Below are positions 8,087 through 32,931 of a stretch of 64,000 nt of DNA, one piece after another. The notes beneath the pieces are model-generated. The model was not told the DNA's origin. It saw only the letters and a list, made by a program, of their open reading frames with translations, and searched no databases. Every line of letters begins with the position of its first letter. Position 1 is the stretch's first letter. The stretch comes from a virus: the IMG/VR virus record IMGVR_UViG_3300010885_040738, positions 1 through 64,000 of that record; one strand, written 5' to 3'. The translations under genes were made by a program, and so were the position numbers.

Positions 8087-9628
8087 ATGGCCTTCATTCT
8101 CCGCCCTCACCAGGCCCATGACTTTGAACTGCTGCGCGAAAAGGTGGCAGAACACCGCGCCGTGCTACTGGTGGCTCCTTGCGGCTACGGCAAGGGCGTT
8201 GTAACGACCAAGATCATTGACGGCACGATGAAGAAGGGGAAGCACGTACTTTTTTTGGTACACGGCCGAGACAGAGTCGCGGACATGGAAGACCGCGTAA
8301 CGAAGCTCGGAATTCCCCATGGCATTCTGATGGGATCTCGCCGGCGGGAGCGTCACCACCTTGTCCAGATCGCCAGCAGCGACACCGTGTACCGAATGCC
8401 GCATAAGCCAAAGGCGGATTTGATCATCATTGACGAAACCCACCTTGCGATGAGCCCGACGTTCCGGGCCGTCCTGGACTTCTACCCTGACGCCAAGATA
8501 ATTGGGCTGACCGCTACGCCGGTCCTTGGCAACGGCAAAGGGCTGGGCAAGGCTTCCGGCGGGATCTATGACTCCATGATCGTCGGGCCGTCAGTGAAAG
8601 ACCTCGTAAGCGAAGGGTATCTGGTGGGCTCTCGGGTGATGGCTCCGCCGCCGCCTGCAGAGCTGAAGAATTTGAAGAAGAAAAAGACCGGCGACTTTGA
8701 CGGCGAACAAGGTGCTGCGATTTGCGACAACCGCAAGGTCATCGGCGACATAATCGAGCACTGGAAACTGTACTCCAGGGACCGAAAGACTGCTGTGTTT
8801 GCGTTCAATCAAAAGTACGCTTATCACATTGCCGAGCAGTTTCGCGAACAGGGCATCAACTGGGCCTACGTGGACGCGGACACGCCCGACGGCGACATTC
8901 ATACGCCCGGGACGCGCAAGTTTATCTGGCACCAGTACGACCATGGTGACTTAGTCGGGGTGAGCTCTGTAGGCTGTATTTCTATCGGCTGGGACCATAG
9001 CATCTGCAAAAGCCTGATTTTCGCTGCCAAGACTACCAGTTTCCCGCTGTACCACCAGCGCCTTGGGCGCGGCTCCAGACCGCACAAGGGGTACTCTGAC
9101 TTTCTTGTTTTGGATCATACCGGCAACCTGTACGAGCACGAGGAACAGGGTCCTTACTTTGAGTCCGACATCAAGTGGCAACTGAACGGTGATGGCGTCA
9201 AAAAGCACGACGAAGACGACCCGGCCCCGCGTGTCTCCACATGCAAGCGCCCGCAGCCCATACCTGACGGCGGGGTGCCTTCGTGGTTTAAGGGCCAGAC
9301 GACAAACGGCTACATGCTCTGCTGCTACCTGACTTTCAAGGCCGGACCCCGGGAGTGTCCACGTTGCGGCTTGCCGATTGCTGTTGATCAGCCAGACATC
9401 AAGGTTGAAGACGGTCACCTTGAAGAAATTACGGAGGGCATGAAGCAGGAGGCGGAGGAGAAGCGGGCGCGGATCGCCGAGCACAAGCAAAAATATCTGG
9501 AAATGTATCTGGAGGGCGTACAAAAAAAGTACAAAAGTGGCTGGGCTTCGATAAGATATAAAGCAGAGTTCGGCCAGTGGCCGGCGAGACAGTGGAAGGC
9601 GGAAGCCTTAGAAATGGTGACCGAGTGA
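8087..9628 (+). CDS. Superfamily II DEAD/DEAH helicase (RadD/YejH-like)
   Basis: APCGYGKG, IIDETH, LTATP, QRLGRGSR, LDHTGN motifs and a Zn finger. Confidence 0.9.
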   Translation: MAFILRPHQAHDFELLREKVAEHRAVLLVAPCGYGKGVVTTKIIDGTMKKGKHVLFLVHGRDRVADMEDRVTKLGIPHGILMGSRRRERHHLVQIASSDTVYRMPHKPKADLIIIDETHLAMSPTFRAVLDFYPDAKIIGLTATPVLGNGKGLGKASGGIYDSMIVGPSVKDLVSEGYLVGSRVMAPPPPAELKNLKKKKTGDFDGEQGAAICDNRKVIGDIIEHWKLYSRDRKTAVFAFNQKYAYHIAEQFREQGINWAYVDADTPDGDIHTPGTRKFIWHQYDHGDLVGVSSVGCISIGWDHSICKSLIFAAKTTSFPLYHQRLGRGSRPHKGYSDFLVLDHTGNLYEHEEQGPYFESDIKWQLNGDGVKKHDEDDPAPRVSTCKRPQPIPDGGVPSWFKGQTTNGYMLCCYLTFKAGPRECPRCGLPIAVDQPDIKVEDGHLEEITEGMKQEAEEKRARIAEHKQKYLEMYLEGVQKKYKSGWASIRYKAEFGQWPARQWKAEALEMVTE

Positions 9629-9928
9629 CTGCAGAAGCAGAAGTAGTACCAGCAACGCCCAAAAGACTTCCCAGGTGCAACCAGTGCGCCCACATGAGGG
9701 GCAAGTTGTACGAGGCGGAGTCTTTGCTCAAGGCCAAGACGTTGCCACTCAACAATCGAGCGCGTAAGCATCTGGACGCGATCAACGGCCGGATTGAGTG
9801 GCTGGAACAGCGGAAGTCGGCTGGCGGCGTTGGGCACAAGCTGGAGCGTGAGGAAAGCGCTTTGCGGTATGCGGTGAATGTGATTATTGCGTTCGGCTCA
9901 GTGCCGGAGAAAGTGGCAGAGGTGTTCA

Positions 9929-10102
9929 GTGGCAAATAAAGAAACTACCGCGGTAGTCAGCAGAGAGGGCGTTGATTACGTGATGGACGTAGCCAAGGCC
10001 GCCGGGCAGGACGCGCTCACAATCGGCCTGAGCGACGAGAAGTCCGCCGTCAATTTCAACGCCCCTGGGTTTGTGGCGGCCGTCATGCCGCTGAGGCTGT
10101 GA
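9929..10102 (+). CDS. 57-aa fragment resembling the C-terminus of the beta sliding clamp
   Basis: DYVMDV...LSDEKSAV...AAVMPLRL resembles DnaN YVLDV...VVMPMRL; GAGGT upstream of GTG. Confidence 0.55.
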   Translation: MANKETTAVVSREGVDYVMDVAKAAGQDALTIGLSDEKSAVNFNAPGFVAAVMPLRL

Positions 10103-10489
10103 TCCATGGGCCTCGCATGGTTGTTGTTTCCGCCGATCCACGACGTTGTGGTTGTTGAAGCGCCGCCGGTAACGTGCGCAACGTGTGGGCGTGACCTGGC
10201 CGGGCTGCTGGGGTGCCCGGAGTGCTTGGCTAAAGTGGTGGTTTTCGATTCGGGGGTGGTGCGTGAGTAAAGGCAGCCCCGTAATCCACATCGCACCTGA
10301 CCTGTCGTATTTATTTCCCAACACGAGAGCAGCCGCCACGGTTTTGTGCGGGCGGCTGTCGCAGAACAGCGCGGCGTCGGAGAGGAGCCAGAAGGCGAGG
10401 TTCGCCGCAGCGGGATTGTCCCGCCAATACCTTATCCCCGGTGGTCAAGACCGGCGTAGCCCCCGCGTGGGGCCGTGCGGCGAAATCCC

Positions 10490-22444: not shown

Positions 22445-24010
22445 TTACGACGGCCATAGTCCGGCAGGAGTCATGAACACAACAGGCGAACAGTCGCCAC
22501 ATTACGCATCCTCGTGCCCCTTTGTCTTGATCCACCACGTATCTCGTCCATGAACATTATGACCGCACCCCGCGCATTCGCTCTTCTTCGATCTGCATCT
22601 GACGACGCACCCACGCCCGCCGCTCGGCCTCGGCTCGAAGCTCCATTTCGGTCGCGGTCGTCGGCGGCACCGGATCTATCACCAGCTTTGCCCCAGCGCC
22701 TTGAATTGCCGCCACGGCAGCAGCCTCAGCCTCGGCAGTGAACGCACCGGAGCCAGCGGACGGCTCCAGAACCTTGGCAGCGTGCTCAAAGTCCGCTTGG
22801 CTAAACGGCTCAATCTGCTCAATGCCACCGCCCAGACCGCTCCCCCCCGTATCCAGATACCCACTTCGCCCAGGGCCCACCAGCGGGATATACCTCGAAT
22901 GGGAACACTCGCACTGCTCAGGCCCCCGCTTGCCCACCACCCGGCCACGAGTACACGTTGCACAACTCGCGCCGGCGCACGCGCCACATATCGCCAGCAG
23001 CGGCACCGGCCCTATCTGGGTCACCACGTACTGACCGTCCGCCAGCTTCACCGCCTCGCCCCGCTTGCGTTGCATCACCGGCGGCAGCACCATCTTGCGG
23101 CCATACTTTACTTTCAGCCCCGCCAGCGCCGCACGCAGAGCCCGAGACTCCTCGGCACCCTTCACTACCACCCGGTCGCCCTTGACCATCCCGGCGGCGA
23201 TTATTGGCCACACGTCCGGCAACGGCGGACGGCCTTTACTTTTCACGGCTCTCACTTACTGCCACCTTCCCACCGCAGATCTGCGGACGCAACCGCAGGG
23301 TACTCACCGTCGCGGAACGCCCTCGGCATCCGGCCAGGCCCCGGCGCAGCCGCTTCTTCAATCGTGCGGCAGTCACCGTCCGGCCCCGGCAATGGATACA
23401 CCTTGCCTACCCTCACATAGCCACCCAAAGCGGCAACCTCCAACTCCGAGATAGCCTTACGCGCCGCAGCCGTCGCCAGCGCCCGCGCCAGCTCGCACGC
23501 AGCCCGAAACACCGACACTGAGCAACGGATCGGCTCGGGGCGTGTCGCACCAGTCGCCGTGAACTCCAACAGGCCCCCGTAGGCGTCGTGAGATACCACG
23601 CCCTCCCAATGGTTGCCATACCTTGCTGTGATTTTGATGTTCACTTCCAATCCCTCCAAATCGCTACGCCGAAAATAAACAGTATGGCTCCGATTGCCAC
23701 CATTTCACACACCCGCCTCAATGTCGTCACCTTTTACCCTGCTTCCAACACATCCACCGCAACATGAACCGCCCATTGCACCCGCTCCAAATCGCCCACG
23801 TCGCCCCACATACGGGTTTCCCGCGTCCGGCGCTCATGCTCTTCCACCAGCGCGGCCAGTTTCTGAATCAGCAGCCCCGCCTTTAGGCTTCCCTCCTGAT
23901 ACGCACTCTCTACGACTCTCACTCCCAGCCCCCGAGAACCAGCGGCAGCAGCGGCACCGCCGCCACCGCCAAGCCAACCAGCACGGCCAGGATAACCAGC
24001 AGCCAGTCTC

Positions 24011-24658
24011 TCACCGCGAAGCCCCCGCCGCAATGCCAGCCACCAGCGGCAGCACATCCCGCGAATACATGGCCAGTAAGCTCTGATACTGGCAAGCCTC
24101 GGCCACGTGCTTCGCCTCCAGGTACGGAGCCCCGCCCAAATTCGCCACCGCACGCGCCACCTTCAGCACGCGCCCATACTGCCCCGCAGAGAATGCCATC
24201 CGGCGACAGGCCATCTCCATCGTTCTGTGCGCCGAATCATCCCGCAACTCCACCGACGTATGCGTCAGCCCAAACACGGCAGCCGAAGCAATCCGTTCCT
24301 CACGGTAATCGTCATCACACTCGGAATACTGTAATGGTGCCATCAGCTCCTTAGTCGGCGTCCCCGGCATCTCCAACACGATATCGTACTCGCGTGCCGT
24401 CCGTTCCAGCCGACGCCACCACCGGGCAATCTGGACCGGCGTACAGATGCACTCCTGCCTCACATCCATACGATGTCCGCACAAGCACGCCTCACGCTCG
24501 GCACTTTGCACAGTCGGGAATGCCTCGCGCAGCGTCGTCTTGCTGCAACTTAGCGGACCCACCAGCAAAACTGACAGGCCCCCGACGCTGGCAACCTCAA
24601 ACGCACGTTTCGCGGTCTGGTTGCCTTTGATCTGGTACGGCTGCAATGAGCTACGCAT
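24011..24658 (-). CDS. Truncated, degenerate ComM/YifB (Mg-chelatase-family) homologue
   Basis: IKGNQTAKRAFEVA.VGG..VLLVGP, CLCG...CICTP.QI and VLKVARAVANL...HVAEACQY. Confidence 0.8.
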   Translation of the reverse strand: MRSSLQPYQIKGNQTAKRAFEVASVGGLSVLLVGPLSCSKTTLREAFPTVQSAEREACLCGHRMDVRQECICTPVQIARWWRRLERTAREYDIVLEMPGTPTKELMAPLQYSECDDDYREERIASAAVFGLTHTSVELRDDSAHRTMEMACRRMAFSAGQYGRVLKVARAVANLGGAPYLEAKHVAEACQYQSLLAMYSRDVLPLVAGIAAGASR

Positions 24659-25918
24659 TTGGCACCACCGTCTTAACGTACTCCGTCCCGTTCCACTGGA
24701 ACCGCACGCCACTCTTGTAGCTCGCCTCGCCCTGCTCAATATACGGCGCTACCGGCGTGTGGCCCAGCAACCAGTGAATCGCGTCCAACTCCCCGGTCAC
24801 CCTGTCAACGCTATCCTGGCTTGGCTGGTCATAAGCCAACCAGCAGAGCTCCTCAATCTTGTCGGCAATCTCAACAGGGCTACGCATGTCCTTCACCACC
24901 TTCCGTAAGCTGACCATCCTCGGCATACGTCGCCGGGACGTGCTCAAACTGAATCCCGCGATTGCGAATCATCGCCAGATAGTCCGCCTCATCCTGCAAA
25001 GGCGAGATAACCTCACTCCCGCCGCCGAATCCCGGCCTCGCCCGTCGCTGAAACTGCGTCAACTGGACACCCAGCCACTTATCCCCCGGCAATTGCCGCG
25101 CCTCTACGAACAGGCCCATCTGGTTTATTGACGTTCGGATCTGCATCATCACGCCCCACCTTTCCCGGCGACCAACTTTTCTATTGCCTCCTGCATAAAA
25201 GTCAGCCAGTCGTTCTCCGAAATATCAGGCTGGAGTTGGTATCCGGCCTGGCCGTCAAATTCGATCAAACCAGCATCTTTCAGCCCGTCGAACATCTCCG
25301 CCGCTAATTCTGTCGTGCCTTCGGCGCCCAATAGGGTTTCGATCTCGCTAATCATGTTGCGTTTGTCGTTCATCATGCCCCACCTTTCCCGGCAGTTTGG
25401 CACGCAACGCCAGTTGCCAACTCGGCCATTTTCGCCTCACCCGCAACCGTCAGCCGGTCGTGGTTGTACTTGCACGTTGCGGACGGTCCGCCAAACTCTG
25501 TCAGCCCCGCAGCCTGTAGCCCCTCAATCGTGCGCTTGGCAACTATCGAGTGCCGTTTGACAGCGCGTAGCCGCGAAAGCAACGCCCGGTCCTGTTTCGC
25601 CTGTTGAGCCGCAATGTACTCGCGCTCCAGTGTGGCCGTCATGCCGTTTGCCCCCAGCTGCCGTCAACCTGCAACGCCTGGCCACGTTTCAGCATGGACA
25701 CAGCCCGGTCGAACTGCCGACGCATCGGCGTCAGGCGTCGATCACCGTGCCAGAACAACCGGCGCATGTTGGTGTGGTCGAACGCCTTCGCCTGATACGC
25801 GCCGTGCTCCATTTCCAGAACCACGCTAACGCCCCCGGCCTCGAACTGCTCAACGTAGCCGCACCCGAATGAATACGGTGTCAGCCTCCCCGCAGCCGTG
25901 CGGAACACCGGCGTAACG

Positions 25919-27240: not shown

Positions 27241-27840
27241 TCACGCCATCCTCCGCCAGGTCAACCAAGTCACCGCCTGTAACTGGTGAGGCACCAGCCC
27301 CAGCTCCGAAGCCACAGCCGCAATAGCCGCAGCCACCACATCATACAGCCCATCCGGCGTCTCGCGCCCGATAGCCATCCGCGAAGCGTGCCGATCCACA
27401 ACCACCAGATCACACCCAGGGTCCAGAATGCACGCCCGAAACGCCCGAACCTTCACGCTGGTTTCAGGCACCACGTCCAGCCACGCATCACCGGCCAGCA
27501 GTCGCTCCGCCTTCTCCATATTCCGGCGGCCATACGTCCCGACCAGCGGCAGCGCCCGTCCGGCGTAGTGTGCCGTCAGCACCCGATGAGTATCCAGCAG
27601 ATTCGCCTCCCACACCCGCCCCGGCGACAACACCGCCAGCACACCCGCGACGATCTCAGTCTTAACCCGGTACCGCCGCGCCATCTCGCGCACCAGCCTA
27701 CCAGCCTCCCGGTACCATTCCCGACCGTGGGTTTCTTCCTGCTCTGTGCGTGCGTCCCAGACTTTCAGGATGCGGCGCCGCATCGCCTTGTGCTGACGAT
27801 TGCCAGCTACCGTAAAGCCGTCTATGCGTGCTTTGATCAC
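27241..27840 (-). CDS. Phage protein of the DUF7178 / HhH-glycosylase-like type
   Basis: G.EWY, AVLSP...W..N, VVDRHA, LQAVTW motifs; GTG overlaps the upstream stop. Confidence 0.6.
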   Translation of the reverse strand: MIKARIDGFTVAGNRQHKAMRRRILKVWDARTEQEETHGREWYREAGRLVREMARRYRVKTEIVAGVLAVLSPGRVWEANLLDTHRVLTAHYAGRALPLVGTYGRRNMEKAERLLAGDAWLDVVPETSVKVRAFRACILDPGCDLVVVDRHASRMAIGRETPDGLYDVVAAAIAAVASELGLVPHQLQAVTWLTWRRMA

Positions 27841-28769
27841 TTCGCGCCTCCTGTGCCAGCGCCGTCCTTGCCAGCCACTGAGCCAATCCCTGTGCAATCC
27901 ACAATGATCCCCGCAGCCATCGCCCGCGCATCGCACGAGTTACACAGCGGTCCGGTCTGAGCTACCACAACGCCCTTGCGGCGGTCCGGTCTGGTCCCCC
28001 AAACGGCATGCTTCCCACACTGCTTCGCGATCACTGCCAGCCGGTCGATTTCTTCAGCCACGTCTGGCGCGTACTGCCGAATCATGGCAATCTCATTCGG
28101 TCGCGCAAACGCCCCACAGAAGCACTCGCCGCTCATGCCTATCGGCGTCATCTTGATCGGATTGCGCGGAATATCGAACGCATCCATAAACGCCTTCTGG
28201 TCCTCGGTGCTGAAATCGTGGCACGGCGCAACCCAGAACCTGTGTTTGTTCGTCGCCTTGCCATTCGCCCCCGGCTCACCAATCTTGAGGGGCTCAACGG
28301 TACCCATGCGCCGCGCAGACTCCTGCTTTCGGCACCCGGTAATCAGGGCCACGTTTTTTTTCGCCTCAAACACGTTGCCATTCTTCCGCAGGGTCCGGCG
28401 AGTGTGCATGTCGCACATCATGCGAACGCAGCGTTCTTTCAGCCGAATGTATGCCCATTGGTGCATCCCAGGGCCAGGGAAGCCGCGCTCACGAATGAAC
28501 TGCTCATACGTGCTGGCGCTCTGGAACGTCTGGAGATCCCACCCGTACTCCCGGCAAACGTCCTGCACGAATGCGTAGGTCGCCTTGCTGCCAATGCCGG
28601 TACGGATATGGTACACACGCCCATCAAACTTCGCGTGCGCACTCGCAGCGTACACCGCAGTCAGGCTGTCATGGCCACCCGAGAGCATCGGCACCATAAC
28701 CTCGGCCCCGGCGGCGAACGCTTCATCTATCACCCGGCAAGCTCTTGAGATAAGCTCAGCTCCGATCAT
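27837..28769 (-). CDS. PAPS-reductase-family protein (second copy, different subfamily)
   Basis: LSGGHDS, TGCRKQESARR, SGECFCGAFA motifs. Confidence 0.85.
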   Translation of the reverse strand: MIGAELISRACRVIDEAFAAGAEVMVPMLSGGHDSLTAVYAASAHAKFDGRVYHIRTGIGSKATYAFVQDVCREYGWDLQTFQSASTYEQFIRERGFPGPGMHQWAYIRLKERCVRMMCDMHTRRTLRKNGNVFEAKKNVALITGCRKQESARRMGTVEPLKIGEPGANGKATNKHRFWVAPCHDFSTEDQKAFMDAFDIPRNPIKMTPIGMSGECFCGAFARPNEIAMIRQYAPDVAEEIDRLAVIAKQCGKHAVWGTRPDRRKGVVVAQTGPLCNSCDARAMAAGIIVDCTGIGSVAGKDGAGTGGAK

Positions 28770-28983
28770 CTGCACGCCACCCACTTCTGAAGGTCATCAA
28801 TCAGGCTCAGCACCTGCTCCTCATTGAGTGACACCTTGACCGACCGAGTAGCGCCCTCGTCATCAACAAACTGAATAGCCAGACGTTCTCCGATCCCGAC
28901 CGTGATAATACTCAGATCCTCGTCGCCCTCGCGCCCAGCTTCAGAAAGCCCGCCCAGCGTGCTCTTGTACCCGTCTCGTGTTA

Positions 28984-32283: not shown

Positions 32284-32931
32284 TTAGTTTCCCTCTCTCT
32301 TCAAAATCGGTGACAACGTGGCGGCAGTCCAAGGTTTCCCGGTCCGGCTCGGCATGGTGTCATTGGCGTTCAGGATCTCGGCGATCTCGGCCAGGGTCTT
32401 GCCATTTTGGCGCAGGAACTGGATAGAGTTCAGCGTCCGGTCCTCGCCGGGGCGGAACCCGAAAGGCTTGCGGCCCTCACAACGTCCGGTCTGTTCTTTC
32501 TTCCTTTGGCGTGCGCCTCGGAGTTTCAGGACAATGGATTGGCGCTCGTACTGGGCGAATCCGGCGAGAATGACGCGAAACAGCTGGCGCTCTGGCGATT
32601 GGTCGTCGGTGTCGTCGCCGTTCGTGCTGACGATCCGCACGTCCTTCTTCGCGAGATCCGCAAGAATGAGTTCCTGCACGAGCACCGCACGCGCTACCCT
32701 GTCGAATTTCTCGACAACGATGGTCCTCGTGCTGGACATCCCGGCGAGCATGGAAACCCACCCAGGGCGGTCTTGCCATTCGTCTTTCCCGGTCTGAGTG
32801 TCTTGGTACCAGTTCGTGATGGTCAGGTTGTGGGCGGCGGCGTGGGATTCGATGGCCTTGCGTTGTCGCGCAAAGCCATCTCCTTCTTCCTGCCCCTTGC
32901 CGCTGACGCGCATGTAGGCTACTGCGTTCAT
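32284..32931 (-). CDS. Serine recombinase (resolvase/invertase family)
   Basis: AYMRVS..Q, RPG, DRVAR, ER..I, G..PFG motifs and a C-terminal helical DNA-binding part. Confidence 0.9.
   Translation of the reverse strand: MNAVAYMRVSGKGQEEGDGFARQRKAIESHAAAHNLTITNWYQDTQTGKDEWQDRPGWVSMLAGMSSTRTIVVEKFDRVARAVLVQELILADLAKKDVRIVSTNGDDTDDQSPERQLFRVILAGFAQYERQSIVLKLRGARQRKKEQTGRCEGRKPFGFRPGEDRTLNSIQFLRQNGKTLAEIAEILNANDTMPSRTGKPWTAATLSPILKREGN

Follow-up and report, generated by a model that had tools for sequence, protein, structure and literature searches.

Mini-ComM, a catalytically dead ComM derivative encoded by an uncultured freshwater phage

ComM and the mini-ComM gene

Several elements of ComM have been assigned functional roles, namely the Walker B residue E302, the sensor 3 residue R316, the arginine finger R463, the helix-2 insert (H2i, residues 281-289) and the pre-sensor-1 hairpin (Ps1β, residues 324-336) (PMC11612176). 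In the absence of ATP and DNA, ComM is a monomer. According to the synopsis of PMC11612176, its Lon domain is required for oligomerisation. ComM binds the small PD-(D/E)XK nuclease YraN, as indicated by bacterial two-hybrid assays, non-additive mutant phenotypes and co-occurrence; the yraN and comM genes are adjacent in 34% of genomes (PMC13663708). An independent study of domain-level coevolution predicts a contact between PF02021 (YraN) and PF13335 of YifB, for which the authors judged the functional information too scant to allow an assessment (PMC6822775).

As reviewed in 2025, comM is the commonest target of mobile elements that act against transformation. The described means comprise AbaR islands and serine-recombinase prophages that insert into comM, the sRNA RocRp, ComI, DNases, regulators, and blockers of the uptake machine (PMC12378983). 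No protein inhibitor or mimic of ComM appears in that review (PMC12378983). We also found no description of a truncated phage ComM in the literature. AAA+ proteins that keep the fold with decayed nucleotide motifs and act by contact are represented by the clamp-loader subunits δ and δ′ and by subunit D of Mg-chelatase.

The protein described here, mini-ComM, is encoded by an uncultured freshwater phage. The analysed window covers 64 kb from the start of a 93,184-bp IMG/VR virus record with a CheckV completeness of 96%. Mini-ComM is homologous to ComM/YifB (TIGR00368; L. pneumophila structures 8RXD and 8RXT) in the α0-β1-P-loop segment, the Cys4 zinc finger, strand β5 and the Mg_chelatase_C lid. 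It comprises 215 aa, whereas ComM/YifB has ~500, and such short forms are mostly viral, whereas ComM/YifB is cellular.

The coding sequence spans positions 24011-24658 on the minus strand and is translated free of internal stops into 215 aa followed by the stop codon. The assignment is supported by Pfam, TIGR00368 and the 8RXD alignment. The gene is intact in contigs of four other freshwater runs, with no indel inside it and one 3-nt deletion just upstream. Its ATG (24658-24656) lies within ATGCGTAG (24651-24658, minus strand), where 8 nt are shared with the upstream ORF and the start overlaps the TAG of that ORF, an arrangement typical of translational coupling; GGTGGTG is located 5 nt upstream of the start. 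The ATGCGTAG-type overlap is also found in the metagenome contig L004, there with a different upstream gene. An alternative TTG start at 24739 was disfavoured, since close relatives share the first residues counted from the ATG.

The upstream gene (24651-24887, minus strand; 78 aa) is a presence/absence cassette. It is absent in L004 and in one X3 contig, where the joint runs from 24646 to 24876, and present in the X4 and X5 contigs. Two GGTGGTG-N-ATGCGTAGC repeats (~24650-24669 and 24879-24900) flank the cassette, and each copy holds a ribosome site, a start codon and the stop of the preceding gene. The 78-aa gene is not a fixed partner of mini-ComM. At the other end, an ORF at 23734-24153 (minus strand) runs into the 3′ end of mini-ComM; a protein-like appearance is confined to the last ~60 codons of this ORF.

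Parts of ComM kept and lost

Pfam recognised PF01078 (Mg_chelatase) in mini-ComM at profile positions 4-46 and 158-202 of 207, and PF13335 (Mg_chelatase_C) at positions 42-93 of 94, the latter with 41.3 bits against a cut-off of 26. The TIGR00368 (YifB) model covered the protein at model positions 346-498 only, with 58 bits against a cut-off of 362.4. Among the features that mark TIGR00368 members, mini-ComM has the embedded Cys4 zinc finger and PF13335, and lacks the whole-protein score, the Lon/ChlI domain and a complete AAA+ core. When a profile of close relatives was aligned to L. pneumophila ComM (PDB 8RXD), residues 4-48 of mini-ComM corresponded to ComM 192-236, and residues 49-196 to ComM 343-504.

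Three clean deletions separate mini-ComM from ComM in a multiple alignment with seven full-length ComM proteins. The first removes the Lon-like N-domain and linker (ComM 1-190, ~190 residues) and leaves no residue before helix α0; the N-terminal Lon-protease-like/ChlI domain (PF13541) was not present in mini-ComM by Pfam or by alignment to full-length ComM. The second removes ComM 237-342, ~106 residues from the middle of the AAA+ core, including PF01078 positions 47-157, and stops just ahead of the CxCG motif. The third takes ~17 residues from the lid. Since E302, R316, H2i and Ps1β all fall within ComM 237-342, the catalytic base and both DNA-gripping hairpins are gone.

The retained parts begin with residues 9-50 (24509-24634, minus strand), which form helix α0, strand β1, the P-loop and α1 (equivalent to ComM 192-236), as supported by the first PF01078 segment, 8RXD and the structural model. 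The translation and the family alignment place a degenerate Walker A, GPLSCSKT, at residues 34-41 (24536-24559, minus strand). It departs from the canonical GxxxxGK[ST], having Ser at two of the three Gly positions, including the Gly before Lys, with the Lys and Thr retained. The Cys4 zinc knuckle CxCG...CxC occupies residues 58-72 (24443-24487, minus strand) and is the equivalent of the embedded zinc finger of ComM. The Mg_chelatase_C lid helices, residues 140-191 (24086-24241, minus strand), are the most conserved part. Other sites have been replaced: in the short forms, Glu or Asp takes the place of the sensor-1 Asn of the NPCPCG motif, the SGPLLDR motif with R381 is substituted, and the equivalent of R463 is Gly in mini-ComM and most relatives.

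The sequence-only reading from which this analysis started had described an intact, coupled 215-aa ORF, and both translation and the start/stop overlap bear it out. Pfam and the ComM alignment likewise agree with that reading on the retained parts (the region before Walker A, the Cys cluster and the C-terminal lid), the translation agrees on the degenerate GPLSCSKT, and the alignment to ComM on the absent Walker B, central AAA segment and N-terminal domain.

We compared the short forms with ComM at 65 columns in which ComM itself is conserved to 80% or more; 32 of these columns were retained in the short forms and 16 were lost. C58, C60, G61, C70 and C72 are invariant in 56/56 aligned short forms and conserved in ComM too. 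The α0 motif residues K17, R18, A19, E21 and A23 are retained, as are D92 and R122. In the lid, I171, A172, H184, E187, A188 and Y191 are 90-100% conserved, and the motifs around R169 and these six residues 75-100%. The P-loop Gly and Lys are retained at 82-95% in the column comparison, with the Lys present in 48/56 short forms; the Mg-binding Thr/Ser that follows it occurs in only 30/56, and a few family members have no P-loop at all. The lost columns include the sensor-1 Asn (97% to 1%), R463 (95% to 18%), the SGPLLDR block with R381, and several residues near the edges of the deletions.

As judged from these alignments, mini-ComM is non-catalytic, because the residues that hydrolyse or sense ATP are absent, replaced or decayed. 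Nor can it act as a motor, since both DNA-gripping pore hairpins are missing. With the trans-acting arginines lost and the ATP residues decayed, the family can neither hydrolyse ATP nor provide a neighbouring subunit with arginines. Despite the loss of catalysis, strong constraint has preserved the zinc knuckle and the lid. This conservation could reflect folding alone.

An AlphaFold2 model based on the 56-sequence alignment had a mean pLDDT of 94.9 and a pTM of 0.90. It consists of helix α0, three strands (residues 30-34, 52-56 and 93-96) and the helical lid, with helices at residues 14-26 and 40-46, and the zinc knuckle sits between strands two and three of the model. The alignment identifies the three strands as β1, β4 and β5 of the AAA+ sheet. 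The strand order of AAA+ proteins is 5-1-4-3-2, so the deletion removes the edge strands β3 and β2 together with the inserts, and the three-stranded sheet stays contiguous, which explains folding despite the large excision. The delta, delta-prime and chelatase D subunits resemble mini-ComM in retaining the AAA+ fold with decayed nucleotide-handling motifs. Unlike mini-ComM, they keep the full five-stranded core and form defined complexes with active paralogues, whereas mini-ComM lacks strands β2 and β3 and has no paralogue in the window phage. Even without any decoy role, mini-ComM indicates that an AAA+ core can be reduced to three strands, a zinc knuckle and a lid and still fold.

The top Foldseek match of the model was ComM. 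In VIA-align, ComM (8rxt_A) gave Z 14.8 with an rmsd of 2.3 Å over 177 residues, followed by ChlI/BchI and MCM with Z 12-14 and rmsd 3.3-3.9 Å; these Z values are too close to separate ComM from ChlI/BchI or MCM by structure, and the ComM assignment comes from sequence. In the BFVD viral structure library we found only full-size AAA+ proteins and no short analogue. The structural similarity extends to MCM, ChlI and RavA. BrxL carries an AAA+ module of the MCM/ComM/Lon-associated kind, and a counter-defence decoy for another host AAA+ protein of this kind, for example a BrxL-like factor, would fit both this wider similarity and the location of the gene in an accessory early region. However, no PADLOC model matched significantly, and the CxCG zinc knuckle and PF13335 give the sequence a specific likeness to ComM, which makes such a target very improbable.

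A family of short forms

A word-indexed search returned 12 near-length homologues (188-216 aa, 51-99% identity). An exhaustive search of 1.84 billion cluster representatives gave 2,478 matches, and among the best 150 of these, at least 77 clusters (at 50% identity) were short forms aligned as a single collinear match, down to ~28% identity. Family members were defined as proteins of ~190-230 aa, collinear with ComM 192-236 and 343-504, with the Cys4 kept and a central segment shorter than 40 residues; mini-ComM of the window has this architecture. Some relatives of 277-324 aa bear N-terminal extensions in which no Pfam domain was found, and these extensions may be miscalled starts.

The ESM Atlas contains three clusters of ~200-216 aa, with 142, 94 and 133 members, 65-83% of which are labelled viral. 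All ten family members that we looked up were known from metagenomes only, and the sole names attached to them were generic, e.g. 'predicted ATPase with chaperone activity'. PHROGs has no family for mini-ComM. A tblastn search of GenBank phages (INPHARED, ~50,000 records) with three family members did not find the short form, only full-length comM or prophage-end comM fragments. The close clade was also not found in 185,579 GTDB species genomes, in a pattern-dependent scan whose 80 retained matches were all full-length comM. By its sequence relationships, mini-ComM is a member of a large, mostly phage-borne, unstudied family, and the comparison supplies a name for several hundred unannotated viral proteins that carry the labels 'magnesium chelatase' or 'ATPase with chaperone activity'.

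A tree built from the shared columns grouped 39 of 40 full-length ComM proteins on one side and placed the window protein within a clade of 48 short forms (SH-aLRT 96). Only two changes of the short/long label are required on this tree, a topology compatible with one old origin of the short forms.

Compared with the 95%-identical copy in L004, the gene has a dN/dS of 0.16, calculated from 21.5 synonymous and 11.5 non-synonymous differences; the more distant pairs, in which synonymous sites are saturated, are consistent with this value. The sequence-only reading had set a unique decaying fragment against its own proposal. The architecture shared by the clusters counted above and the dN/dS found here point to a maintained gene, and the large family, the purifying selection and the confident compact fold rule out a unique decaying fragment. 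Mini-ComM is a catalytically dead ComM derivative that is under selection and compactly folded.

The position of the central deletion, which stops immediately ahead of the CxCG motif, might be seen if the gene were a leftover of integration, either a comM fragment beside an attachment site that rebuilds comM after insertion at the NPCPC hotspot or simply a dead remnant. The mini-ComM gene is, however, complete, has a coupled start of its own and evolves under purifying selection, and its family has diverged to ~28% identity with the architecture retained and is found in integrase-free complete phages. We consider such an origin of the present gene scarcely credible, and rejected an attP or gene-restoring comM fragment on the grounds that an intact, selected gene is present in complete phages devoid of integrase.

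We must also note that many IMG/VR contigs (L169-L182, L185-L186 and others) end in a comM 3′ fragment that matches only residues ~50-190 of the query. The comM gene is a known integration hotspot, and these contig ends look like prophage calls that reach into a split host comM.

Genomic context and possible roles

Mini-ComM belongs to a long string of small leftward genes whose functions are unknown. DUF7178 and PAPS-reductase-like genes lie on one side of this string, and on the other is a rightward replication block that encodes a CHC2 primase, VapE-like and ResIII helicases and an SbcC-like ATPase. The DUF7178 protein (E 5e-40) and the PAPS-reductase-like protein (phrog_424) are encoded upstream in the leftward string, at 27241-28784 on the minus strand. 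This pairing is often seen in phage DNA-modification modules.

The short form was found on at least seven viral contigs (41-138 kb, GC 46-61%). Across seven mini-ComM contexts no neighbour was conserved, with the exception of the primase and VapE-like helicase, which are 7-9 kb away in both the window and contig L003. In the 60.9-kb complete IMG/VR phage L167, a full RuvB gene (9451-10389, plus strand; domains RuvB_N, AAA_lid_4 and RuvB_C) lies three genes downstream of mini-ComM, which places two branch-migration-related genes close together in this single phage.

The early or replication-side strings in which the gene resides, the primase and helicase at a distance, and the RuvB of L167 would suit a stand-alone accessory of phage DNA replication or recombination. 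In such a role, independent of ComM, the zinc knuckle and lid would serve as a scaffold for binding DNA or for recruiting a helicase of the phage or the host. Residues 366-373 of ComM, beside the zinc finger, have been proposed to touch DNA (PMC11612176), and the equivalent Arg-rich helix is retained in mini-ComM. Nevertheless, the RuvB adjacency was seen once and the remaining neighbours vary. Moreover, the short forms carry less positive charge than the corresponding segments of ComM (mean net charge +3.4 vs +8.2), so that the enhanced basic charge expected as a sign of DNA binding was not seen. We regard an accessory role as unlikely, although less so than the other alternatives to our preferred reading.

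No tyrosine integrase was found in the genome of the window phage, nor were RecA or RecT. The sole recombinase found in the 93-kb genome is a serine enzyme of the resolvase/invertase type (215 aa, 32284-32931, minus strand; PF00239, E 4e-27), which may serve in inversion, dimer resolution or integration. Two complete carrier genomes with direct terminal repeats have neither type of recombinase. The mini-ComM family does not behave like a prophage gene, and its carriers look virulent.

These observations bear on the function that the sequence-only reading had proposed, in which mini-ComM joins the host ComM hexamer as a dominant-negative subunit and so prevents the prophage from being cured by transformation, in place of an insertion into comM. 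Mini-ComM is indeed homologous to a hexameric motor and has its catalytic parts removed. Mobile elements often disrupt comM (PMC12378983), as the contigs that end in its 3′ fragments also illustrate, and ComM matters most for recombination across heterologous DNA (PMC13663708). However, curing by transformation threatens only integrated elements, so a family that is not prophage-like undercuts this rationale: the window phage has only the small resolvase-type recombinase and no integrase, the terminal-repeat carriers have no recombinase at all, and the close clade was not seen among the 185,579 species genomes. Mini-ComM also lacks the Lon domain, stated to be needed for oligomerisation, and has lost the trans-acting arginines, which makes its simple incorporation into the ComM ring doubtful. 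Of the earlier proposal, the dead, non-decaying ComM derivative is upheld by family, selection and fold, whereas the anti-curing rationale is weakened, and we consider the block of curing rather improbable.

Our preferred reading, which we hold tentatively and regard as plausible but short of probable, is that mini-ComM is a non-enzymatic ComM mimic, a decoy for YraN or for ComM itself. During infection, it would occupy a contact that is normally made by ComM. The likeliest such contact would be with the nuclease YraN through the retained Mg_chelatase_C lid, whereby YraN would be kept away from ComM. PF13335, the domain of the predicted YraN contact, is the lid that is best conserved in mini-ComM, which favours a YraN decoy. 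No YraN is encoded by the carrier phages.

Alternatively, the retained P-loop face of mini-ComM might bind the arginine-finger face of a ComM protomer, acting as a chain-terminating cap that stops ring growth. Retention of the cis P-loop face together with loss of the trans arginines is the asymmetry expected of a cap. An ATP-bridged cap is, however, weakened by the presence of the Mg-ligand Thr/Ser in only about half of the family and by the members without a P-loop. Either contact, in a host assumed to carry ComM and YraN, would uncouple the ComM-YraN D-loop helicase/nuclease system and might thereby protect phage recombination and replication intermediates or, in temperate relatives, the prophage. 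We know of no benefit that blocking ComM would bring to a lytic phage, which counts against the decoy reading. The more specific proposal, that mini-ComM sequesters YraN, caps assembling ComM, or does both, and that ComM-YraN is a barrier that even virulent phages must neutralise, seems to us somewhat doubtful.

If the mimic reading is right, mini-ComM would target the same host pathway as the mobile elements that act against transformation. Unlike insertion into comM, it would act in trans as a protein, and from phages that look virulent. It would then be the first protein inhibitor of the ComM-YraN pathway, and ComM-YraN would have an anti-phage or anti-mobile-element role beyond transformation. 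Mini-ComM could also reveal interference in trans by phages with the branch migration of their hosts. As a protein that keeps only the contact surfaces of ComM, it would be a natural probe for ComM partners, including the recently found YraN, and it bears on the questions of why mobile elements in competent bacteria destroy comM more often than any other gene and what ComM does outside transformation.

Two further features of the phage record were observed. Positions 23919-23990, between mini-ComM and the next gene, hold a simple GC-rich repeat of the GCC/ACC type that is Gly/Ala-rich in one frame; unrelated metagenome contigs pile up on it to very high depth and with many loose ends. Beyond the window, at ~86.5 kb of the same record, the resolvase search met a 5,793-aa open frame that encodes a giant phage protein.
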